This document shows positions 11,476-54,230 of a stretch of 64,000 bases of DNA, piece after piece. The stretch lies in assembly GCF_054482525.1 (NCBI RefSeq), contig NZ_CM137006.1. One strand, given 5' to 3'. Within the stretch, counting starts at the first letter, position 1. Every line of letters begins with the position of its first letter. Below the pieces are notes generated by a model. That model saw nothing but the letters and a program-made list of their open reading frames with translations. It made no database searches and was not told the origin of the DNA. The position numbers and the translations under genes were made by a program.

Positions 11476-13053
11476 ATGACGGAAAACATTCATAAGCATC
11501 GCATCCTCATTCTGGACTTCGGTTCTCAGTACACTCAACTGGTTGCGCGCCGCGTGCGTGAACTGGGTGTTTACTGCGAACTGTGGGCGTGGGATGTGAC
11601 AGAAGCACAAATTCGTGACTTCAACCCAAGCGGCATTATTCTTTCCGGCGGCCCGGAAAGCACCACCGAAGAAAACAGCCCGCGCGCGCCGCAGTATGTC
11701 TTTGAAGCAGGCGTACCGGTATTCGGCGTTTGCTATGGCATGCAGACCATGGCAATGCAGTTGGGCGGTCACGTTGAAGCCTCTAACGAACGTGAATTTG
11801 GCTACGCGCAGGTTGAAGTCGTAAACGACAGCGCACTGGTTCGCGGTATCGAAGATGCGCTGACCGCAGACGGTAAACCGCTGCTCGATGTCTGGATGAG
11901 CCACGGCGATAAAGTTACCGCTATCCCGTCCGACTTCGTCACCGTAGCCAGCACCGAAAGCTGCCCGTTTGCCATTATGGCTAACGAAGAAAAACGCTTC
12001 TATGGCGTACAGTTCCACCCGGAAGTGACTCACACCCGCCAGGGTATGCGCATGCTGGAGCGTTTTGTGCGTGATATCTGCCAGTGTGAAGCCCTGTGGA
12101 CGCCAGCGAAAATTATCGACGATGCTGTAGCTCGCATCCGCGAGCAGGTAGGCGACGATAAAGTCATCCTCGGCCTCTCTGGTGGTGTGGATTCCTCCGT
12201 AACCGCAATGCTGCTGCACCGCGCTATCGGTAAAAACCTGACTTGCGTATTCGTCGACAACGGCCTGCTGCGTCTCAACGAAGCAGAGCAGGTTCTGGAT
12301 ATGTTTGGCGATCACTTTGGTCTGAACATTGTTCACGTTCCGGCAGAAGCTCGCTTCCTGTCAGCGTTGGCCGGCGAAAACGATCCGGAAGCAAAACGTA
12401 AAATCATCGGGCGCGTTTTCGTTGAAGTATTCGATGAAGAAGCACTGAAACTGGAAGACGTGAAGTGGCTGGCGCAGGGCACTATCTACCCTGACGTTAT
12501 TGAATCTGCCGCATCTGCAACCGGTAAAGCACACGTCATCAAATCTCACCACAACGTGGGCGGCCTGCCGAAAGAGATGAAGATGGGGCTGGTTGAACCG
12601 CTGAAAGAGCTGTTCAAAGACGAAGTGCGTAAGATTGGTCTGGAGCTGGGCCTGCCGTACGACATGCTGTACCGTCACCCGTTCCCGGGACCAGGCCTCG
12701 GCGTTCGTGTACTGGGCGAAGTGAAGAAAGAGTACTGCGACCTGCTGCGCCGTGCTGACGCCATCTTCATTGAAGAACTGCGTAAAGCGGACCTGTACGA
12801 CAAAGTCAGCCAGGCATTCACCGTCTTCCTGCCGGTACGTTCCGTTGGCGTAATGGGCGATGGTCGTAAGTATGACTGGGTTGTCTCTCTGCGTGCTGTC
12901 GAAACCATCGACTTTATGACCGCACACTGGGCGCACCTGCCGTATGACTTCCTCGGTCGCGTTTCCAACCGCATTATCAATGAAGTGAACGGTATTTCCC
13001 GCGTGGTGTATGACATCAGCGGCAAGCCACCAGCGACTATTGAGTGGGAATGA
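11476..13053 (+). CDS. guaA: GMP synthase (glutamine-hydrolysing)
   Basis: 525 aa ORF; GATase domain plus SGGVDSS PP-loop; recalled GuaA. Confidence 0.95.
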
Positions 13054-13099: not shown

Positions 13100-13126
13100 A
13101 ACCCTCTGTTTTTACAGAGGGTTTTT
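13100..13126. repeat. Prophage left attachment site (attL); guaA terminator hairpin AACCCTCTGTTtttACAGAGGGTTTTT
   Basis: Near-identical copy at 53625-53652 (3 mismatches in loop); lies just after guaA stop and before the integrase. Confidence 0.7.
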
Positions 13127-13245: not shown

Positions 13246-14496
13246 GTGCTTACCGATACAAAATTAAAAAACCTCAAGCCGCAGGACAAACTGTACAAGG
13301 TCTCCGATCGTGACGGGCTGTATGTAGCTGTGCTTACGTCAGGCACGGTCTCGTTTCGCTATGACTACCGTATCAACGGTCGTCGCGAAACACTGGTAAT
13401 CGGGCAGTATGGGCGTGACGGTATCAGCCTGGCAGAAGCGCGAGAAGAACTGATTGCTGCAAAGAAGCTGCTTAAAGCAGGCCAGTCGCCGGCTGCGGCT
13501 AAACGTGACGGTATCAAAAAGATTCGTGGTGCCGAGACGTTTGCGGTACATACCGACAGTTATATGAAACACGTCATCCTGGCTGACAGTACCCGCGCAA
13601 TGAAGCAGGCGGTGATTGACCGTGACATACTTCCGGTTCTTGGTAACAAAATGATGGCTGAAATTACCACATCGATGGTTCGTGATTTGTGTGACCGGAT
13701 TGTCGAACGCGGTGGTCGGGCAACAGCAGTACAGGCCAGGGAGATCATCAGCAGCGTATACCGTCACGCCAATGACCGTGGTCATGGTTTGTTTAATCCT
13801 GCGGCTGACATTAAACCTTCGTCTATCGCCATATTTAAACCACGAGAGCGAACACTGACACCAGAAGAAATTGGCCTGTTCTTCCGCACGCTGGATGCCA
13901 TTGGTGCTATGGGCACTATGAAAATGGCTTTAAAGCTGGTGCTTATCACTATGGTTCGTAAAGGCGAATTCACCAACGCAACGTGGGATGAAATAGATTT
14001 TAAAAAATGGACATGGACAATTCCTTCAGACCGCATGAAGGGAAGCCGGGCGCACGTTATTTACCTGCCTAAACAGGCTCAGGATATATTGGTCGGGTTG
14101 CAGATGTGCGCTGGTGGAAGTGAATATCTGGTTCCTGGTCGTTACAATTTCCGGAAGCCATTATCTAATGCCGCGCTGAACTCTCTGATCGACAGAACGG
14201 TGAAAATAATAAATGAAGATGGTGAGCATATTCAGGGCTTCACCGTACACGATATGCGCCGTACAGCCAGTACGTTGTTGCATGAGGCTGGTTATCCTTC
14301 AGACTGGATTGAAAAGGCTCTGGCACATGAGCAGAAAGGTGTGCGCGCCGTATATAACAAAGCGGAATACGCCAGACAGCGCGCCTACATGTTGCAGCAG
14401 TGGGCCGATATGATTGATTCCTGGATTAACGGGGAGCATACGGATCTGATTCCGTTCTCCCCGTCGAAGTTTGAGAAGTGGATGGCGGGGGAATAA
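13246..14496 (+). CDS. int: Tyrosine integrase (P4-type, with N-terminal arm-binding domain)
   Basis: 416 aa ORF with GTG start; N-terminus typical of P4-family integrases; catalytic-domain R...HDMRRT...Y pattern. Confidence 0.85.
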   Translation: MLTDTKLKNLKPQDKLYKVSDRDGLYVAVLTSGTVSFRYDYRINGRRETLVIGQYGRDGISLAEAREELIAAKKLLKAGQSPAAAKRDGIKKIRGAETFAVHTDSYMKHVILADSTRAMKQAVIDRDILPVLGNKMMAEITTSMVRDLCDRIVERGGRATAVQAREIISSVYRHANDRGHGLFNPAADIKPSSIAIFKPRERTLTPEEIGLFFRTLDAIGAMGTMKMALKLVLITMVRKGEFTNATWDEIDFKKWTWTIPSDRMKGSRAHVIYLPKQAQDILVGLQMCAGGSEYLVPGRYNFRKPLSNAALNSLIDRTVKIINEDGEHIQGFTVHDMRRTASTLLHEAGYPSDWIEKALAHEQKGVRAVYNKAEYARQRAYMLQQWADMIDSWINGEHTDLIPFSPSKFEKWMAGE

Positions 14497-46055: not shown

Positions 46056-46601
46056 TTATTCCTTCCATTTATCAGAAAAAAGATCTTCTTCTAAAGGCAT
46101 TGGTTCTGTTTTTGTTTTCTCAAAGAATTGATAACTGATAGTGATTGCTGCCTCTTTAAACTCTTCTTGCTCAGTTATGTTGTGGGCATCTGCGTCAACA
46201 AAAAACATAACCAGCGCATCACGATTGTGATTTACCGAATAAACTAAAAAGCAATTACTTGTTGGTATGCATTTTACTTGCACAGACGCTATTTTTTTCC
46301 ATGCATCCCAAGATGATTTTTTACCAGTGTGTTTTTTATCACTATCTTCTGGAATATAGTCTTGGTTATCGACATGAGTATGCCTGACATTTAGTTTAAG
46401 CATTTCTGTCGGACGAGCAAATGCAGCATCTTTACCAAGAGATGGATGGTATCCCGTTTTCCAATACTGGGTAAAGGCATCAGATACTTTCTTCAGCTCA
46501 AGATCAGATGCACAAAGGGCCGAGAAATTTTGCGTATGCAATACTCGACCCTTATATCTGACAATTTGATTTTTATCATTCTGCGACGCAGACGAACTCA
46601 T
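46056..46601 (-). CDS. YafO-like toxin candidate with N-terminal extension
   Basis: 181 aa from ATG with AAGGA RBS; C-terminal part resembles recalled YafO core. Confidence 0.4.
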   Translation of the reverse strand: MSSSASQNDKNQIVRYKGRVLHTQNFSALCASDLELKKVSDAFTQYWKTGYHPSLGKDAAFARPTEMLKLNVRHTHVDNQDYIPEDSDKKHTGKKSSWDAWKKIASVQVKCIPTSNCFLVYSVNHNRDALVMFFVDADAHNITEQEEFKEAAITISYQFFEKTKTEPMPLEEDLFSDKWKE

Positions 46602-46755
46602 AATTTTCCTTATTGTTACGAGAATCAAAGAAAGCGCGGGATACGCGACTTGCGTGATCTTTTGTCATAGTAACTTTTACGCACTCTACGCTTCCATTGA
46701 AAGAACGTCTTGCGGCAGCTTGCGCTCTACGCATCTGCAATTTTTCGTTTCGCAT
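46576..46755 (-). CDS. Small basic protein, candidate antitoxin/regulator
   Basis: 59 aa hand-translated ORF (below ORF-track cutoff) with GAGGT RBS; 3' end overlaps toxin start by 26 nt. Confidence 0.3.
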   Translation of the reverse strand: MRNEKLQMRRAQAAARRSFNGSVECVKVTMTKDHASRVSRAFFDSRNNKENYEFVCVAE

Positions 46756-46815
46756 GACATTACCTCATATCTCATAAGTTCATTACACGGATTAATAAAA
46801 ATGAAACCAATCCGT

Positions 46816-46830
46816 TTACCCTTGAGGTAA
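46816..46830. promoter_or_regulatory. TTACC-N5-GGTAA motif upstream of small ORF/toxin pair
   Basis: TTACCcttgaGGTAA. Confidence 0.45.
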
Positions 46831-46902
46831 TAGTACGCTATTCACCCACAGTCTGCAATCTGTACAGAATTATTTAAAGGCACATCCCTGTGCCGCCGCC
46901 CG

Positions 46903-47598
46903 TCAGAAGAACCCTGCCTTGTCGTTGATGTACTCCGCGTGCGTCTGGATATCACGCAGGCATTTGCTCACACCGACGATGTAGCAGAACATGGTGGTCA
47001 GCTCCGCCGCCGCGCCCGATACGTCGTGCCCGTCGTCCTGTAACTGGTTCAGCAGATTCATCAGCAGTGAGTTCTCCGTCAGGCCGAGAACACCAGACGG
47101 CGAATGAATCAGGCTGCGGTAGCCGGGCTTCAGTGGGGCACTGTAGGTTTTGTTCTCTATCTTCATCGCCTGCATCACTGCTGATGCTGTGGCGTTGGCT
47201 ACCTGGTCGGCAACCATCTTTATGCGCTCTTCCTGCGGGAGCGAGTTTTTAATGTAACTTCCGGTGCGGCGGATCTGAGGAAGAACCTCACCTGTAACCC
47301 ATTTACGAAAGCGGTATGGGATAGTGCCTGGTGTCACTGCGTCGCGGCAGCGGAGGATCAGTGTGTAGAGGCCTGACTCGGAGATGATGATCGATTCTTG
47401 CTCACCGCCAGGGGTGTCGGTTGAAGCGACGCCCTTCTCATCATCATCAAGTTTTCGAACAGCATCTCGATGGTTTGCTATGCCTATAGCCCGACAAACA
47501 TCTGAAGCGATAAACCATGGCTCACCATTAATGACGATTACTCGTATATCGGCTTGGGATTCGAAAGAAAAAATGGACGTGCTTTTTGTAGCTGTCAT
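46903..47598 (-). CDS. BRO-N domain antirepressor-like protein
   Basis: 231 aa; N-terminal Bro-N-like pattern (INGEPWFIASDVCRAIG); C-terminal domain paralogous to ORF 47914-48171. Confidence 0.6.
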   Translation of the reverse strand: MTATKSTSIFSFESQADIRVIVINGEPWFIASDVCRAIGIANHRDAVRKLDDDEKGVASTDTPGGEQESIIISESGLYTLILRCRDAVTPGTIPYRFRKWVTGEVLPQIRRTGSYIKNSLPQEERIKMVADQVANATASAVMQAMKIENKTYSAPLKPGYRSLIHSPSGVLGLTENSLLMNLLNQLQDDGHDVSGAAAELTTMFCYIVGVSKCLRDIQTHAEYINDKAGFF

Positions 47599-47867
47599 AG
47601 TGGTTACCTTTTAGTCTGGTTAATCACCACTACCGACGCCAATCGGTTGGTGGTGAGCTGTGCAGGGTTGGCGTAACCGGCTAAAAGGACCCGGCGCACC
47701 TTTCGGTGCCCCCACACAGCCCACCATAATACGAATGTGGCCGTGCTATACGCATAAAAAAACCGCTTGCGCGGTGAATGCGCCTTTTAGTAATCCGGGA
47801 CGCCAATCCCGGCACTGGATTTTGCCAGTGCCCGATTACTATGGCACAAGAGGAGTGCGATGTAAAT

Positions 47868-47882
47868 TTACCGCAAAGGTAA
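47868..47882. promoter_or_regulatory. TTACC-N5-GGTAA motif upstream of BRO-N gene
   Basis: TTACCgcaaaGGTAA. Confidence 0.45.
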
Positions 47883-47913
47883 ATATAAGCACTTCATTTG
47901 GTAATTGCAAACC

Positions 47914-48171
47914 TTATCTGGTTTGTTTTCGTAATTGTTCGGCACAATAGTCGAGATGTGTTTGCAGATCCTGCATAGACATCTGTGAGCTGGTGACGTA
48001 GTTAATCAGTGCAGTCAGTTCGGCAAGTGGGCCATCGACATTAAATCCATCCTTATCTAGATCCCGGAGTAATTTCATCAAGTGCGATCCCTCCACCAGT
48101 GACTTGACGCCTCCCGGCGTGTGAATCCTTTCGGTAAATCCGTCTTCCAGTGGATAGTGATACTGCTGCAT
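47914..48171 (-). CDS. Small LexA-controlled protein, Tum-like antirepressor candidate
   Basis: 85 aa from ATG with GGAG RBS; ~45% identity by eye to C-terminal 60 aa of adjacent BRO-N protein; LexA box upstream. Confidence 0.5.
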   Translation of the reverse strand: MQQYHYPLEDGFTERIHTPGGVKSLVEGSHLMKLLRDLDKDGFNVDGPLAELTALINYVTSSQMSMQDLQTHLDYCAEQLRKQTR

Positions 48172-48191
48172 CTTAATCTTCTCCATGCAAT

Positions 48192-48367: not shown

Positions 48368-51142
48368 ATGACGGTCTCAACCGAAGTTGACCACAACGAA
48401 TACACAGGTAACGGCGTTACGACATCATTTCCGTATACCTTCCGCATTTTCAAAAAAACAGACCTGGTTGTTCAGGTGTCTGACCTGAACGGTAACGTAA
48501 CAGAATTGGTTCTGGATACCGGTTATACGGTAACTGGGGCGGGCACTTATAGTGGCGGTTCTGTTGTTCTTCCGTCGCCGCTTGCTGCTGGCTGGAAAAT
48601 CACGATAGAGCGTGTGCTTGATGTGGTGCAGGAGACTGATCTTCGCAATCAGGGAAAATTTTTCCCCGAAGTTCATGAGGATGCATTTGACTACCTGACG
48701 ATGCTGATCCAGCGATGTTTTGGGTGGTTCAGACGTGCATTGATGAAACCATCTTTGCTTGCAAAATATTACGATGCAAAGCAAAACAGAATTTCTAACC
48801 TTGCAGATCCATCACTTGAGCAGGATGCTGTAAATAATCGCTCAATGCGTAATTATGTCGATGCTGCAATCGCCGGGGTTGTTGGTGGTTTTGGTTGGTT
48901 TATTCAGTATGGTTTTGGGGCAGTATATCGAACGTTCCAGGATAAGATGCGGGATATCGTCAATGTTCGCGATTTTGGTGCAAAAGGGGATGGCATTACT
49001 GACGATACAGACGCAATAACAAATGCCATCATTTACTGCGCATCTAACGGAAAACGCCTGAAGTGGGATTCTGGTGTGTATTTGATTAGCCGCATAAAAT
49101 GCGGCGGGGATAATTATAACTATGACTGGGTAGCTGATGGCAAGGTTGTCTTAAAGTCAACCGCAAAAGAGCCTCTTGGTCCAAACTGGATTGATGATTA
49201 TTTCATAAGACTCGAAGGTGGAGATGCCACGCCAATTGACTATAATTCAACAATAAATCCTGGTGACACATCAATATCAATTAACTCAGCATATTCTGTT
49301 GATGCAGGCGATATAATTATGATTCATGGTAATCGCTTAATTCAGACAGATAATAGAGGACAGGCTTGTGAAGGTGAAATGCATGTTGTTACTGCTTTTG
49401 ATAATGCAACAAAAAAAGCGGAGATATCAGGTGCATTTTATTTTTTCTACTCTGCGAGCAATGATTACTCAACGACCGTAACAGCATCTGTATCCGGAGG
49501 TGAATTCTCATTTGGTAATGATGCAACATTAACAAAACAATACAATCAGGTAAAAGTAACAGGTGTCACCGGAGCTAACGCCGGAATATCAAGATACATA
49601 ACTCATTGGGATTACGACACTAAAACAGCAAAATTTGAATATGCTCAGGGACCATTCCCGTTTAAACCATCTGTTGGAGACGTGTTTAAAATCACAAGAA
49701 AGGCAAATATATATAAAAGAAAACCATGCTACGGCAGAATTGTCGGTGATTTCAATTTTGAAAGACCTGTCACGCAGAACGCATCTCCTGGTGATTTGGG
49801 GTTCCGTGGTCTTGTGATAGATGGCGCTGTTGATATGCATATAGAAGGAATAAAACTAATCGGCTTTTCAGAAACTGGAATTTTTCTTGAGTCATGCTAC
49901 AGAACGAAAATAATAGAGCCATATATTGAATACTCAAACCGTGCATATGATTTAACAAACGGCACTGGTTATGGTGTTGAAATATACAATAGCAGCTATT
50001 GCACAGTCGTGGATATGATAGCATTTGCTTGCAGGAGGGGGCTTGATGTAAGCGGGACTCAAATGGTATCACTGTATAATAACATTATAAATCCAACGAT
50101 GATGGGTGGTGGAACTGCATATGATGGAGTTAAATTTTTCCCTGATGGCGATACAAGAAATTCATGTTGCGGTGGACACGGCCCATCATACGAAACAACT
50201 TTTACAGGCGGCAATTCAGTCAATTTGTATTATGCTGGTGTAATACGCGGATTAAATGAAGTGTATGATGGAATGAACGCCAGGGGATTTAGCGGACCGG
50301 CTCCTTTTTTTGTAAGATATAGTGGTGGTGGGTTCACGATTCAGAACTGTAATTATATTGATGGTTTTACTGAGATGTCTTTGCCATACAACTTGAGGTA
50401 CAAACCTGTGAATGCAACTCAACGTAATCACAGACCTTTTGTTTTTATTGAAACAACTCTGGCACAGACAGACAGAAACTCTTACTATAAAGAACTTCCT
50501 GTTGTTATTAAGAATAATACCGCAAGGACTGTTCTCAAGGGCTTTTTACGTTTTGAGGTTAATGATGGCCTCACCCCTCTAATCCAAAATATTTATTTTG
50601 GTGGTAATTTATGCATGGCGAACCCAGAAACATCAGACTCTGTATCAGGGCAAACAGAGGCAGTAATGGTTTATTCATCAGTTCCTGGTGCAATAATTGT
50701 TCGAAATTTCCATGATCTTGGCGGTAACAGAATTGTTCCTGTTGGAGCAGGATACAGATACTGCGGTATGTTCAACACGCCAGATGGAATAGCAGGAACA
50801 ATAGTTCAACCAGACGGAAAATATCTAATAACACTTGAAGCCAACAAATCTACAAGTATCCTTGTTGGTGGATATGTCCCATGTGTTCGCCTTGATATGC
50901 ACGACATACTTGATATTCATGGGGTAATTGCAGTTGGTGTTCTTATTCATCGTGGTGAGGCAATTGATTTTTCTCCTTTAAAAGAAATTAATAAGCAAAA
51001 TGTTGTATTGAAAACCGGAGTTCTTTCAGATAATGATGGTGATGAAAATAACTTAAATATTTCGTTTGACTTTGCAACCATATATTTAAGCAACAAGATG
51101 CCAAATAAGATTCAACTATCTATTGAAGTATCAGGAGTGTAA
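48368..51142 (+). CDS. Tailspike / receptor-binding protein
   Basis: 924 aa; N-terminal virion-attachment-like region, large repetitive beta-rich body; position typical. Confidence 0.6.
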   Translation: MTVSTEVDHNEYTGNGVTTSFPYTFRIFKKTDLVVQVSDLNGNVTELVLDTGYTVTGAGTYSGGSVVLPSPLAAGWKITIERVLDVVQETDLRNQGKFFPEVHEDAFDYLTMLIQRCFGWFRRALMKPSLLAKYYDAKQNRISNLADPSLEQDAVNNRSMRNYVDAAIAGVVGGFGWFIQYGFGAVYRTFQDKMRDIVNVRDFGAKGDGITDDTDAITNAIIYCASNGKRLKWDSGVYLISRIKCGGDNYNYDWVADGKVVLKSTAKEPLGPNWIDDYFIRLEGGDATPIDYNSTINPGDTSISINSAYSVDAGDIIMIHGNRLIQTDNRGQACEGEMHVVTAFDNATKKAEISGAFYFFYSASNDYSTTVTASVSGGEFSFGNDATLTKQYNQVKVTGVTGANAGISRYITHWDYDTKTAKFEYAQGPFPFKPSVGDVFKITRKANIYKRKPCYGRIVGDFNFERPVTQNASPGDLGFRGLVIDGAVDMHIEGIKLIGFSETGIFLESCYRTKIIEPYIEYSNRAYDLTNGTGYGVEIYNSSYCTVVDMIAFACRRGLDVSGTQMVSLYNNIINPTMMGGGTAYDGVKFFPDGDTRNSCCGGHGPSYETTFTGGNSVNLYYAGVIRGLNEVYDGMNARGFSGPAPFFVRYSGGGFTIQNCNYIDGFTEMSLPYNLRYKPVNATQRNHRPFVFIETTLAQTDRNSYYKELPVVIKNNTARTVLKGFLRFEVNDGLTPLIQNIYFGGNLCMANPETSDSVSGQTEAVMVYSSVPGAIIVRNFHDLGGNRIVPVGAGYRYCGMFNTPDGIAGTIVQPDGKYLITLEANKSTSILVGGYVPCVRLDMHDILDIHGVIAVGVLIHRGEAIDFSPLKEINKQNVVLKTGVLSDNDGDENNLNISFDFATIYLSNKMPNKIQLSIEVSGV

Positions 51143-51178
51143 TTGTATCAATTTGCTAAATTAAAAAAGGATAAAAAT

Positions 51179-51463
51179 ATGGATACAACACCAATAACAC
51201 ATGCAGTATGCGCGGTTATTGCGCAGATACTGGTTGGCCTTTCTACCGGAAACTGGGCTTACGGTGCGATAGCCGGTTGTACGTTCTTCATTGCGCGTGA
51301 ACACACCCAGGCAGAATATCGCTGGATAGAAAAGTTTGGGAAAGGGAAACGTATCAACATGCCATGGTGGGGAGGTTTTGATCCACGCGTGTGGGATGTG
51401 GGAAGTCTGTTGGATTTTGCTGTTCCTGTCATTTTTTGTTTTTGTATTTATTTCTCTATTTGA
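51179..51463 (+). CDS. Small membrane protein after tailspike
   Basis: 94 aa from ATG with AAGGA RBS; two hydrophobic segments. Confidence 0.4.
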   Translation: MDTTPITHAVCAVIAQILVGLSTGNWAYGAIAGCTFFIAREHTQAEYRWIEKFGKGKRINMPWWGGFDPRVWDVGSLLDFAVPVIFCFCIYFSI

Positions 51464-51683
51464 CCGCTACCGCGCCATCAAATGGCGCGGTATTCAACCC
51501 GATCTCCATAGTTTGAATCATTTCTGTACTGTTGTTTCTTCAGTGTTATGTAAAAGGTGAGCCTTATTATCGGCATGAAAACAGGGGATTGACGATGTTG
51601 AAGTAACAAAAAACCATAAATGGTTTATCATGCATAATGCTTTACTGTTCAGGAGGTAGTTATGCATATAAACGGTGGAAAAC

Positions 51684-52088
51684 ATGTCAGCTCAACTAAC
51701 CAGTGAAACTTTAAATCAGTGGCTTAGCATGAGTTCTCTGGCGGCGGTGATAGCAGGAGTTCCTCCTGAGGTTGCTTTGGGGGCTTTGGCTGGAGCGGTA
51801 ATTTTTGTTACCTCTGCGGTAGAGTATCCCATTCGTCGTCGTGTACTCTTGTCGATGCTTAGCTTTCTCTGCGGCCTTCTTTTTTATAAACCAGCAGCAT
51901 CAATTCTTATCGGCATAGCCAGCATGATCCCTACTATCACGCAGGACTCTTTTGAAAAAGGGATTGTTTTCTCTGCTGGCGCATTCGTGTCAGCAATTGT
52001 TGCTGTGCGTATTGGTATATGGCTCTACCACCGTTCCGATAATCCACGCGAGTTAATTCCGGGGAGAAAAGACGATGGTAACGCATGA
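51684..52088 (+). CDS. Membrane protein, holin candidate
   Basis: 134 aa; several TM segments; upstream of endolysin. Confidence 0.4.
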   Translation: MSAQLTSETLNQWLSMSSLAAVIAGVPPEVALGALAGAVIFVTSAVEYPIRRRVLLSMLSFLCGLLFYKPAASILIGIASMIPTITQDSFEKGIVFSAGAFVSAIVAVRIGIWLYHRSDNPRELIPGRKDDGNA

Positions 52089-52383
52089 GTTTTTTTTGCT
52101 TATCACCAATGCAGTTATTTGTACTGGCATAGCAATTCGTGTTGTCACATTCCGGCGTAACGGATCTCAACATCGAAGATGGGGGGGGTGGCTTGCTTAT
52201 TTCCTGATTGTTGCTGCGGCCAGTATTCCGGTTCGTGTTGCCTATGCAATCTGGTTCCGCACGCCAATGGCTGTGGATTTATCTGAGGTCATTATCAACG
52301 CTGTCATGCTCGCTGCGGTTATTAAAACGCGCGGTAACGTCGTTCAAATTTTCAAAGTATCGAGGTCTAAACATGGAGATTAA
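52075..52383 (+). CDS. Holin-like membrane protein
   Basis: 102 aa; 3 TM-like segments; directly upstream of endolysin. Confidence 0.45.
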
Positions 52384-53002
52384 ACAATTCCAGCGAGCTG
52401 CTGGTATTAGCGAGGCGCTGGCCGCACGCTGGTTCTCGCATATAACTTCTGCGATGAAAGAGTTTGGTATCAGCAAACCAGAAGATCAGGCAATGTTTAT
52501 TGCTCAGGTCGGGCATGAGTCTGGAGGTTTCACCCGGTTGCAGGAAAATTTCAACTACAGCGTCAGCGGACTGGCTAACTTTGTTCGGGCTGGGCGTCTC
52601 ACTCAGGGACAGGCCAACGCACTGGGTCGCCGTGCTGGTGAACCGCCATTACCACTCGAGCGCCAGCGTGCGATCGCAAATTTGGTGTACAGCAAACGCA
52701 TGGGGAACAATGCCCCCGGCGATGGCTGGAATTACCGGGGTCGCGGACTTATCCAGATTACCGGTTTGAATAACTATCGTGATTGCGGAAACGGCCTGAA
52801 AGTGGACCTGCTGGAGAATCCTGAACTGTTGGCGCAGGACGAATACGCGGCTCGTAGCGCGGCGTGGTTCTTCTCCAGCAAAGGCTGCATGAAGTATACC
52901 GGAGATATTGCACGTGTAACTCTGCTTATCAATGGTGGCCGGAACGGCATTGATGACCGGCGCGCGCGATACATCACTGCCAGTAAGGTGCTGGCGGTAT
53001 GA
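52373..53002 (+). CDS. Endolysin, GH19 chitinase-like
   Basis: 209 aa from ATG with GAGG RBS; conserved HESGGF and [12 protein letters not shown]-type motifs. Confidence 0.7.
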
Positions 53003-53496
53003 TCTGGGCATTCGCAAAAGCATACTGGAAACAGTTGGTTATCATGGCGATGCTTGCTGTTCTGGTCATATCAGGAGTTGTAGCCTGGAATGCACACGGT
53101 AGTCGTCAGTACGACGCCGGGTATGCACAGGCACAGGAAGATCAGAAACAGGCTGATGATAAGGCCAGGTCACAACGTGATCAGGAGAAAACACAAATTG
53201 AACGTGAAGCACAATCCCGTATCGATGTGGCGCGTGTTGATGCTGAGCATGCTAATGCCGCTGCTGACAGCCTGCGCGCCGAGCTTGACAAAACCAAGCG
53301 ACTCGCCGAACACTATACCGGATCTTTCCCCACTGGCACGTCAGCCAGCAAGGTCATCGGTGTGCTCGCCGACATGCTTGAAGAAAGCAACCGAGTTTAC
53401 AACGCAACAGCAGCTGAGGCTGAAAAGTATCGGATTGCAGGAGAATCCTGCGAACAGCAATACGATTCACTGAAGAAACAAAAATCGTGGCACTGA
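52999..53496 (+). CDS. i-spanin (Rz-like)
   Basis: 165 aa; N-terminal TM then charged coiled-coil; overlaps endolysin stop. Confidence 0.65.
53225..53473 (+). CDS. o-spanin (Rz1-like) embedded in Rz gene, +1 frame
   Basis: Lipobox LLTAC after hydrophobic leader, Pro-rich mature region; start codon uncertain. Confidence 0.5.
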   Translation: MWRVLMLSMLMPLLTACAPSLTKPSDSPNTIPDLSPLARQPARSSVCSPTCLKKATEFTTQQQLRLKSIGLQENPANSNTIH

Positions 53497-53624
53497 TTTC
53501 CGGTGACGGTATATAAAACGGTACGGCGAAAATCAGGTTGCAGAAAGTTGTTATCAGTCAATTGGTTATGTGTGTCGTAAATAATTGAGTGGGAATAATT
53601 TGACCCTGCACTATGAATGAACAA

Positions 53625-53652
53625 AACCCTCTGTTACTACAGAGGGTTTTTT
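53625..53652. repeat. Prophage right attachment site (attR); AACCCTCTGTTactACAGAGGGTTTTTT
   Basis: Direct repeat of 13100-13126; host genes resume immediately after. Confidence 0.7.
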
Positions 53653-53690
53653 ATCTTCAAGAATTATAGGCTTGAAGTTACTTACATCGA

Positions 53691-54230
53691 TTAATTAAAC
53701 CAGCTGTCCGATTTGTTCTCTTCTGCTTTGCCCACGCTTTTCATCAGATCTCGACCGCCCTCAGTCATATTCCTGTTTGCGTCAGCTTCAGATTGCACCA
53801 CATCGGTTTGCGCAGCTTTGTGCTTCAGTTCCTGATCGATAAATTCGTTTTCTCGCTTAACGCGGGCTTCTTCTTTCGCCAGCGCCAGTTTTTGTTTCTG
53901 AATCTCTAAGCTGCGTAGCTCATCTTCATAACTTTGATCGCGTTTTTTGTCCGCAGAGGCTTCGGCGTCCAGTTTATCCTGACGAGCTTTCTTATTTGCC
54001 GCTGCCGTTGCCGCTCTTTTGTTAGCGGCGGCCTGGGCGTTTGCGCGACGTTGCTTCTCTTGCTGGATTTCCCTGTTGCGCTCCGCGACCCATTCGTCAT
54101 GCTGCCTTTGCTCTTCATTTTTACCTTGCTGTTCCGCTTCTGCGACAGCAGAGAGTTGATCCTGCAATGATGAGGCGATAGCCGGATAGCTTAAGGAGGC
54201 TAAGATGGCGCAAAGAAAAACTTTCTTCAT
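53691..54230 (-). CDS. yfgI: Periplasmic protein YfgI
   Basis: 179 aa; signal peptide; charged coiled-coil; conserved position next to guaA in K-12. Confidence 0.7.
   Translation of the reverse strand: MKKVFLCAILASLSYPAIASSLQDQLSAVAEAEQQGKNEEQRQHDEWVAERNREIQQEKQRRANAQAAANKRAATAAANKKARQDKLDAEASADKKRDQSYEDELRSLEIQKQKLALAKEEARVKRENEFIDQELKHKAAQTDVVQSEADANRNMTEGGRDLMKSVGKAEENKSDSWFN

Follow-up and report, generated by a model that had tools for sequence, protein, structure and literature searches.

Organisation of the locus

The stretch of DNA analysed here, called the window in the following, comprises 64,000 nucleotides (nt) of contig NZ_CM137006.1 (RefSeq assembly GCF_054482525.1) and belongs to an Escherichia coli chromosome, with 99.8% identity to strains 201609 and 1517k. 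We deal with a group of phage lysis genes and with a small gene directly after the neighbouring tailspike gene, which encodes a membrane protein of 94 amino acids (aa) and is called the 94-aa gene below. Together they are the last late-gene block at the right end of a prophage of ~40.5 kb of the epsilon15/phiV10 type (genus Uetakevirus). All open reading frames (ORFs) listed in the original prediction for this block, namely the gene of the 94-aa membrane protein following the tailspike, two holin-like genes, an endolysin gene and the spanin pair Rz/Rz1, are indeed present (Table 1). Taken as a whole, the region is probably best explained as a standard five-gene Uetakevirus lysis cassette, accompanied by a separate membrane protein gene of an uncharacterised family, which is linked to genes of receptor-binding proteins (RBPs).

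Table 1. Features of the lysis region, its surroundings and the prophage ends (positions in the window; uORF, upstream ORF)
Feature	Position	Strand	Family or basis
94-aa three-helix membrane protein	51179-51463	+	phrog_1443 family, E 4e-54
holA, 134-aa membrane protein, epsilon15 gp23 homologue	51684-52088	+	PF16931 Phage_holin_8; phrog_198
holB, 102 aa, epsilon15 gp24 homologue	52075-52383	+	PF05449 Phage_holin_3_7 (formerly DUF754); phrog_217
Soluble GH19 endolysin, 209 aa	52373-53002	+	PF00182; phrog_181
Rz-type i-spanin, 165 aa	52999-53496	+	DUF2514, 84 bits; phrog_312, E 2e-52
Rz1-type o-spanin, nested in Rz in the +1 frame	53225-53473	+	phrog_11621, E 8e-26; lipobox LLTAC
GC-rich stem-loop (10-11 bp stem, 3-nt loop, no U-tract)	51469-51491	+	directly 3' of the 94-aa gene
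Palindrome AACCATAAATGGTT (51612-51625), then -10-like element TGCATAAT (51631-51638)	51612-51638	+	alignment
uORF of 14 codons, MHINGGKHVSSTNQ followed by a stop	51662-51706	+	strong Shine-Dalgarno sequence AGGAGG at 51652-51657; overlaps the holA start in another frame
Tailspike, 924 aa	48368-51142	+	phrog_14558 tail spike (E 0); PF12708 pectate-lyase-like
Left attachment (att) core copy ATTGAGTGGGAAT, 13 bp	13039-13051		3' end of guaA
Right att core copy ATTGAGTGGGAAT, 13 bp	53584-53596	+	duplicated core; marks the prophage end

The lysis cassette

Judged by gene content and order, the cassette is an ordinary member of the standard, epsilon15-type lysis module of Uetakevirus, and the RefSeq annotation already labels the region as a lysis module. 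The same five genes, with the same overlaps, lie between the tailspike region and the phage attachment site attP in epsilon15 (gp23-gp24-gp25-Rz-Rz1) and phiV10 (p27-p30a), the gene order being kept at 80-93% nucleotide identity in phiv142-3, EC.W1-9, phiV10, epsilon15 and Tyrion. All of the 80 Uetakevirus loci from IMG/VR hold holA, holB and the endolysin gene, and 76 include Rz as well. At the protein level, identity to epsilon15 amounts to 93% for holA (92.5% to gp23), 82% for holB and 84% for the endolysin, whereas Rz has diverged to 51%; a further difference concerns the slot upstream of the cassette, which is occupied by the plus-strand 94-aa gene here and by the minus-strand genes gp21/gp22 in epsilon15 or oac in phiV10.

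Both holin-like proteins exceed the gathering thresholds of curated holin families (46.6 bits for holA against PF16931, cut-off 26.4; 94.4 bits for holB against PF05449, cut-off 25.4), although both families carry the label 'putative' in Pfam itself. Two consecutive holin-like genes with several transmembrane (TM) segments, as originally predicted, are therefore found, with PF16931 preceding PF05449 and the two reading frames sharing 14 nt. By hydropathy, about three hydrophobic segments are seen in holA (three to four helices when the fused AlphaFold2 (AF2) model discussed below is counted), three in holB and a single one in Rz, such segments being absent from the endolysin. The proposed GH19 type of the latter is borne out by its Pfam match and by its alignment with the SPN1S endolysin (PDB 4OK7), which spans residues 1-208 (E 4e-117). 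Since no hydrophobic window, and neither a signal nor a signal-anchor-release (SAR) segment, appears in its hydropathy profile, this enzyme needs a hole-forming holin. The nested arrangement of the spanin genes had also been recognised correctly: Rz combines an N-terminal TM helix (residues 8-34) with a coiled periplasmic domain, and Rz1, starting at ATG 53225 or alternatively at GTG 53204, is annotated as the same nested gene in epsilon15 and phiV10.

Pairwise ratios of nonsynonymous to synonymous substitution rates (dN/dS) against epsilon15 or Tyrion are 0.04-0.05 for holA, 0.08 for holB and 0.07 for the endolysin gene; Rz reaches 0.51 against epsilon15, and the 94-aa gene 0.18-0.27 against other copies. 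Purifying selection thus acts on all cassette genes as well as on the 94-aa gene, which argues for real genes and not chance ORFs, and the range of 0.04-0.08 for the two holin-like genes contradicts the reservation of the original prediction that one of them might be untranslated.

The space between the 94-aa gene and holA contains several candidate control elements. The stem-loop, with a folding energy of -19.3 kcal/mol (RNAfold) and present in EC.W1-9 too, may be an RNA end or a processing site between the tail and the lysis units. Further downstream, the palindrome and the -10-like element are kept in epsilon15, phiV10, Tyrion and EC.W1-9, a consensus scan places a promoter-like site at 51603-51631, overlapping the palindrome, and palindrome and -10-like element are regarded by us as a candidate promoter/operator of the lysis cassette. 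The Shine-Dalgarno sequence and the ATG of the uORF are conserved across Uetakeviruses, while a 1-nt indel in epsilon15 alters the frame and the peptide; start signals that are kept while the peptide changes suggest a regulatory role, if any, and the uORF may exert translational control on holA. An Rfam scan of 50900-53750 returned one chance-level match only. The conserved control region in front of holA also shows that the lysis cassette and the 94-aa gene belong to separate units.

The conserved pair of holin-like genes

The PF16931/PF05449 pair is a conserved two-gene module and not peculiar to this prophage. Four holB-type queries yielded 313 IMG/VR loci, falling into four subfamilies, which we searched with hidden Markov models built from our own alignments: an ORF of the holA family (PF16931) stands directly upstream of the PF05449 gene in every locus with enough upstream DNA (306/306). 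The same order is found in seven sampled phages covering myo-, sipho- and podovirus types, namely Hafnia phage yong2, Klebsiella siphophage Seifer, Burkholderia myophage Mana, Ralstonia phage RSA1, Pseudomonas phage phi_D3, the N4-like FSL SP-058 and the lambdoid HK639, among which the endolysins encoded downstream of the pair differ in type. The pair is also present in epsilon15 (where gp23 is annotated as 'membrane protein' and gp24 as 'holin'), phiV10, Tyrion ('putative holin' twice) and SPN1S. The P2-like Burkholderia phages KS5, KS14, KL3, AP3 and Mana, and also RSA1, show the succession of PF16931 gene, PF05449 gene and endolysin gene as here; they differ in having myovirus virions, in protein identities of ~23-37% and in an endolysin with PG_binding_1 and DUF3380 domains in place of GH19, and the roles assigned to their pairs are all predictions.

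Between holA and holB there is no detectable similarity, and descent of the two as paralogues was ruled out, their sequences being unrelated. The P2 proteins Y and LysA were considered as relatives of holB and holA, respectively, and rejected as well, no significant similarity being found; a paper on a Neisseria holin mentioning epsilon15 concerns an unrelated holin. In its general design, the pair is nevertheless reminiscent of P2 Y/LysA and of lambda S105/S107, where a three-TM holin of class I type is combined with a second membrane protein tuning lysis timing, with the difference that in P2 gene K lies between the LysA and holin genes and LysA can be dispensed with, the pairing being invariant here. 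An in-frame GTG at 51675, three codons upstream of the holA ATG, resembles the dual-start geometry of lambda; the putative extra residues are M-E-N here, M-V-T in epsilon15 and M-V-I in phiV10, so charge is not conserved.

At the N-terminus of holA, ~25 residues are highly variable, with at least four widely differing versions, MSAQLTSETLNQWLSMSS and MSGVFTNYQLNQSIGVGG among them (IMG/VR loci L083, L085 and L103 compared with window positions 51684-51760). The remainder of holA, together with holB, is near-identical in the same prophages despite this variable N-terminus.

The 94-aa protein and its family

The 94-aa ORF begins 36 nt past the tailspike stop codon, with an AGGA Shine-Dalgarno sequence 7 nt upstream. 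Its product matches phrog_1443, catalogued with unknown function, over the full length (residues 1-94 of the 97-position profile), and by sequence it is an ordinary member of this catalogued, uncharacterised family and not a part of the lysis cassette. No match above the curated cut-offs of Pfam, NCBIfam or PADLOC was obtained with it, and likewise none with holA and holB in NCBIfam and PADLOC. Relatives are numerous: a word-indexed search returned 577, and a profile search of 1.84 billion proteins 444 cluster representatives (50%-identity clusters, E <= 0.001), all of them single-domain proteins of ~60-146 aa with no informative fusions, and single 90%-identity clusters contain up to 1,603 E. 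coli sequences. The members in phage 21 (CPT_21_24, 'putative membrane protein'), Perceval (PERCE_24) and Gally (GALLYPH_17) are 74-87% identical to the protein in the window and occupy the same place directly after the receptor-binding gene or genes; nothing of substance differs between them, apart from the lambdoid members being preceded by a side tail fibre gene and a further gene of 92 aa, as compared with the tailspike of a podovirus here.

Hydropathy gives two clear segments and a weaker middle one for the 94-aa protein, and AF2 predicts three helices (residues 4-23, 26-53 and 74-93; pLDDT 90.9). Structure searches with this model retrieved generic helical matches only, and a profile search with the family against PDB sequences found nothing. 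Fourteen positions are invariant (D2, H8, Q16, G29, R40, Q44, A45, E46, Y47, W49, R58, P62, W64, G66), and the conserved family motifs AREHTQAEYRWI and NMPxWxGFD are both present. Seven Lys/Arg residues lie in the 40-73 loop and none elsewhere; by the positive-inside rule, the protein would be oriented N-in/C-out, its conserved loop facing the cytoplasm.

Linkage to receptor-binding genes

The neighbourhood of the gene is the one feature of it that merits modest follow-up, since its linkage to RBP genes is consistent. Always on the strand of the last RBP gene, homologues stand directly after the side tail fibre gene in the lambdoid phages 21, Perceval and Tritos; directly after the tailspike gene in the P22-like Gally and 611R6; after J and a pectate-lyase spike in a Citrobacter prophage; after a giant J protein in a Comamonas prophage; and after a P2-type fibre in a P2-like Aeromonas prophage, where stop and start codons overlap. 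The RBPs preceding the gene are mostly unrelated to each other, while the 94-aa protein is ~60% identical across genera. A shared C-terminal RBP domain was considered as the cause of the linkage and rejected: beyond near-identical tailspike copies, only the C-termini in the loci L008, L048 and L064 are related. In these three, the 94-aa gene follows directly, and the C-terminal ~100 aa of the fibre in L008, a P2-like prophage of Aeromonas salmonicida, are 41-43% identical to the E. coli tailspike types of L048 and L064. RBP tip and small gene appear to travel as a unit across genera and tail morphologies. For a further set of divergent homologues, the contigs were too short to give an informative context.

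Homology between the copies runs from the ATG to the stop codon only, so that no promoter travels with the gene. Among the 80 close Uetakevirus loci, 17 contain the 94-aa gene and 63 are without it, and its presence tracks the tailspike type exactly (six types with it, 31 types without). The slot is otherwise mostly empty, six loci having acyltransferase homologues and a few having other minus-strand ORFs. Many matches in E. coli genomes begin exactly at the start of the 94-aa gene, or ~40 nt inside it, which suggests that tailspikes are exchanged by recombination at its 5' end. The central ~120 nt of the gene are almost identical among epsilon15-like, P22-like and lambdoid phages. In phage vB_EcoP-611R6 (L018, 1905-3788), the tailspike gene is followed by an OafA-type O-acetylase gene, a 37-aa remnant annotated as 'tail fiber protein', the 95-aa member of the family and the integrase gene; the remnant suggests that a foreign fibre gene contributed its 3' end and, along with it, the small gene.

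Expression of homologues in E. coli LF82

Three homologues are covered by published RNA-seq values of prophages in E. coli LF82, given as log2(fpkm+5), where fpkm stands for fragments per kilobase per million (Misson et al., PMC9928086 S1 Table). GALLYPH_17 is at background in overnight culture in lysogeny broth (LB; 3.75/4.53) and reaches 8.38/8.72 after 6 h in macrophages, the adjacent tail spike gene rising from ~3.9 to 7.8; PERCE_24 goes from 3.19/3.79 to 5.92/5.58 under the same conditions and its adjacent tail fibre gene from ~2.75 to 5.8 (PMC9928086). Co-regulation of the homologue with the adjacent RBP gene is thus found in two of three cases. Other late genes of Gally remain at ~3-4, J and the other tail genes of Perceval stay at background, and GALLYPH_17 is also induced in Dulbecco's modified Eagle medium (DMEM) without full lytic induction (PMC9928086). 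In the third case, TRITO_22 was recorded at 2.82/3.79 in LB overnight and 3.29/3.55 in macrophages at 6 h, staying at ~3-3.8 in every condition (PMC9928086). None of the three homologues exceeds the moron cut-off of the authors in LB (PMC9928086), and their background level there implies that the family, in standard culture, is no conversion gene with constitutive expression.

In macrophages, the spike and fibre genes of LF82 prophages together with the small genes after them are up 6-40-fold, the remaining virion genes being silent (PMC9928086). The RBP genes of Gally, Perceval and Tritos appear to be a separately regulated unit.

Flanks and ends of the prophage

The duplicated att core marks the prophage borders (Table 1), and homology to phage records stops at ~53600, beyond which the host genes yfgI, yfgH, yfgG, pdeF, ppx and ppk1 follow in the RefSeq annotation. 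On the left side, ORFs at 8.4-13.05 kb are presumably xseA, guaB and guaA, as inferred from ORF size and the gene order of K-12, and a 416-aa ORF, integrase-sized, begins at 13246. Insertion occurred at the 3' end of guaA, the phage bringing a replacement guaA end and a terminator-like hairpin at ~13100-13125. The nearest phage relatives are phiv142-3, EC.W1-9 and HEMP4 with 93% nucleotide identity; phiV10, epsilon15 and Tyrion come next with 80-87%, and the whole group belongs to the genus Uetakevirus or stands close to it. The tailspike ORF bears the RefSeq label 'glycosyl hydrolase family 28-related'. Just 5' of it, the minus strand at ~46056-48186 encodes a toxin of the YafO family (as annotated by RefSeq in the identical region), an anti-repressor of BRO-N/Ant type (46903-47598) and a 90-aa phrog_450 protein (47914-48186), the last being homologous to the C-terminal part of this anti-repressor.

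The tailspike-lysis slot and O-antigen conversion

Genes modifying the O-antigen do sit between tailspike and lysis cassette in epsilon15-like phages, and the premise from which the 94-aa gene had been proposed as a seroconversion candidate is therefore sound: epsilon15 carries gp21 (Wzy-like) and gp22 (66 aa, a polymerase inhibitor) in this slot, phiV10 carries oac and Tyrion an acyltransferase gene. The candidacy itself fares less well, as it rests on position, the gene having no similarity to gp22, lying on the late strand and having no partner enzyme. Epsilon15 gp22, the inhibitor of the host O-antigen alpha-polymerase which acts with the Wzy-like beta-polymerase gp21, is likewise a small membrane protein from the tailspike-lysis slot; it differs in its opposite strand and in having two TM domains (TMDs) as compared with three helices, and the 94-aa family, unlike gp22, is spread over phages with unrelated RBPs. 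Searching the slot of the 80 related loci by tblastn, we found no homologue of gp21 or gp22, and the queries Oac, Tyrion acyltransferase and 611R6 OafA matched in six of the 80, none of which has the 94-aa gene. The 94-aa protein does not belong to the acyltransferase-3 family either, whose members have about ten TM helices; it has no Pfam match and no relationship to any known O-antigen conversion protein. Hyp24 of phage Kapi1 was examined as a possible homologue and ruled out, being an unrelated 34-aa minus-strand ORF; the nearest published experiment, on a lipopolysaccharide (LPS) change by this gene, which lies between tail spike and integrase, was negative and has no bearing on the 94-aa family.

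Competing explanations

Concerning the roles within the lysis cassette, we prefer to see the hole-former in holB and its regulator in holA, on account of the three predicted TM segments of holB, its basic C-terminal tail and its direct abutment on the endolysin gene. HolB, which also has a conserved RGN motif and overlaps the endolysin start, agrees with the structural description of a holin (small, at least one TMD, a charged tail, beside an endolysin gene), whereas the mixed-charge tail of holA is net neutral. The published assignments, all made by prediction, point in the same direction: in KS5, KS14 and KL3, the holin was assigned to the DUF754 gene and a putative antiholin to its upstream neighbour (Lynch et al., PMC3091744), as was done again in AP3 (PMC5674055). 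The announcement of Mana speaks of 'two predicted holin genes', likened to epsilon15 gp23/gp24 (PMC8188340). The original suggestion of a holin/antiholin pair accordingly matches existing annotation as regards joint function, which the 306/306 co-occurrence supports, while the individual roles are only predicted. What weighs against our assignment is that the literature yielded no experiments on any PF16931/PF05449 pair, the roles resting on topology and gene position; that a fused holA-(GGGGS)6-holB AF2 model from a 31-row paired alignment was of low confidence (pLDDT 63.8, pTM 0.51, computed without contact output) and yields no evidence of a heterodimer; and that holA never goes missing and exceeds holB in conservation, which is unusual in a dispensable antiholin like P2 LysA. 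Holin function might thus be divided otherwise, the two proteins being an obligate two-component holin, or holA the hole-former with holB as its regulator, a possibility we rate below our own assignment and still take seriously because the pairing never varies and the dN/dS of holA is very low, the lowest in the cassette. Fixed gene order with overlapping or abutting frames, membership of both proteins in curated holin families and the Gly/Ala-rich helices of holA (GAxAGA motif), as found in oligomerising or dynamic TM segments, would all fit such an arrangement, and annotations of the Center for Phage Technology (CPT, Texas A&M) tag both genes 'holin or antiholin' without choosing; the classical holin features are nonetheless concentrated in holB, the published predictions name the DUF754 protein, and the fused model lent no structural support. 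That the 94-aa protein is a further lysis component, such as a pinholin, antiholin or timing modulator, seems very unlikely to us. It is a small multi-TM protein encoded on the same strand, its gene adjoins the cassette here and in EC.W1-9, phiv142-3 and HEMP4, and the Comamonas copy precedes three small overlapping ORFs of unknown function; but these ORFs match no lysis family, lambdoid, P22-like and P2-like phages have the gene far from their lysis genes and always beside an RBP gene, it is absent from 63 of 80 Uetakevirus cassettes that are otherwise nearly identical, and the stem-loop and a separate conserved control region intervene before holA.

Our reading of the 94-aa gene as an RBP-linked accessory gene outside the lysis cassette has observations against it, too: more distant homologues in the Aeromonas phages PS1 and 4_4512 are not beside an annotated RBP gene, TRITO_22 was not co-induced with the fibre genes TRITO_19-21, which reach 5.3-8.3 (PMC9928086), the slot is the same as that of gp21/gp22, oac and the Tyrion acyltransferase gene, and the 611R6 copy stands beside an OafA-type O-acetylase gene. 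The last two points favour a seroconversion factor that would alter the O-antigen of the lysogen in the manner of gp22 and guard it against O-antigen-specific phages, as do the position between tailspike and integrase in Gally and 611R6, a classical conversion locus, the tracking of tailspike type in the 80 loci and the induction of GALLYPH_17 in DMEM and macrophages without full lytic induction. Even so, we consider such a factor improbable. BLASTP of the 94-aa protein against gp22 gave no local alignment at E <= 100, no acyl- or glycosyltransferase family was matched in Pfam or NCBIfam, and the gene is on the late strand, every known converter in the slot being on the opposite one; there is no partner polymerase or acyltransferase and no room in the slot for another gene, nor does a conserved promoter of its own or any upstream sequence common to the copies exist. 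Wzy proteins and O-antigens are hypervariable, and ~60% identity across genera, also behind fibres that do not target the O-antigen (lambda Stf/J, P2-type), is a poor fit to a factor aimed at hypervariable O-antigen polymerases; background expression in LB-grown LF82 lysogens and the predicted cytoplasmic position of the conserved loop with its seven Lys/Arg residues tell against it as well. In view of the slot and of the OafA-type neighbour in 611R6, a role of the protein in surface polysaccharides stays conceivable. Somewhat less unlikely, though still not what we expect, is superinfection exclusion or another envelope-directed function on a conserved inner-membrane target, for example the route of DNA entry or a lipid-carrier step, the gene being a moron that hitch-hikes near RBP genes. 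A small integral membrane protein at a moron hot spot, the end of a late operon, would suit this, and P2 Z/fun after the fibre genes is a comparable moron position (PMC3091744). High conservation across hosts implies a conserved target, the homologues in two LF82 prophages are induced under host-like conditions, and in the AF2 model the polar residues H8, R40, E41, H42, E46 and D79 would cluster toward one membrane face; set against this are the missing PADLOC match, the background expression in LB lysogens and the fact that no phenotype is reported for the family in the literature.

Proposed mechanism and significance

In the course of events that we propose, holB would build up in the inner membrane until, at a fixed time, it opens large holes, through which the GH19 endolysin, soluble and devoid of a signal, would gain access to the cell wall; holA would work with holB, either as an antiholin setting the timing or as a second holin subunit. 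The 94-aa gene moves as a bare ORF directly behind RBP genes in podo-, sipho- and myovirus prophages and is here probably transcribed together with the RBP gene; at best guess its product, located in the inner membrane, may target a conserved envelope function of the host while RBPs are being produced. A bolder version, which is doubtful and offered only tentatively, would see in the 94-aa proteins a widespread, unstudied class of RBP-linked inner-membrane accessory proteins, with three helices, an invariant polar cluster of His, Glu, Asp and Arg, occurrence in all three tail morphologies and co-induction with the RBP, and independently in the PF16931/PF05449 pair a holin of Gram-negative phages that consists of two obligate subunits.

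As far as the window itself is concerned, not much changes: its cassette is a textbook Uetakevirus module that is already annotated. The existing, predicted holin/antiholin annotation is strengthened by the invariance of the pairing, and an invariant pair with the most constrained 'accessory' partner would be a good model for two unrelated membrane proteins jointly timing lysis in Gram-negative hosts. Should the 94-aa protein turn out to modify or block a conserved step in the assembly of the envelope or of surface polysaccharides, or in the entry of phages, it would represent a new kind of exclusion or conversion factor that differs from the Wzy inhibitors, the Gtr proteins and the acyltransferases. 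The family is attached to receptor-binding genes, the most frequently exchanged part of phage genomes, and knowing its function would aid the reading of prophage tailspike cassettes and possibly of host-range and exclusion phenotypes in E. coli, Citrobacter and Aeromonas.

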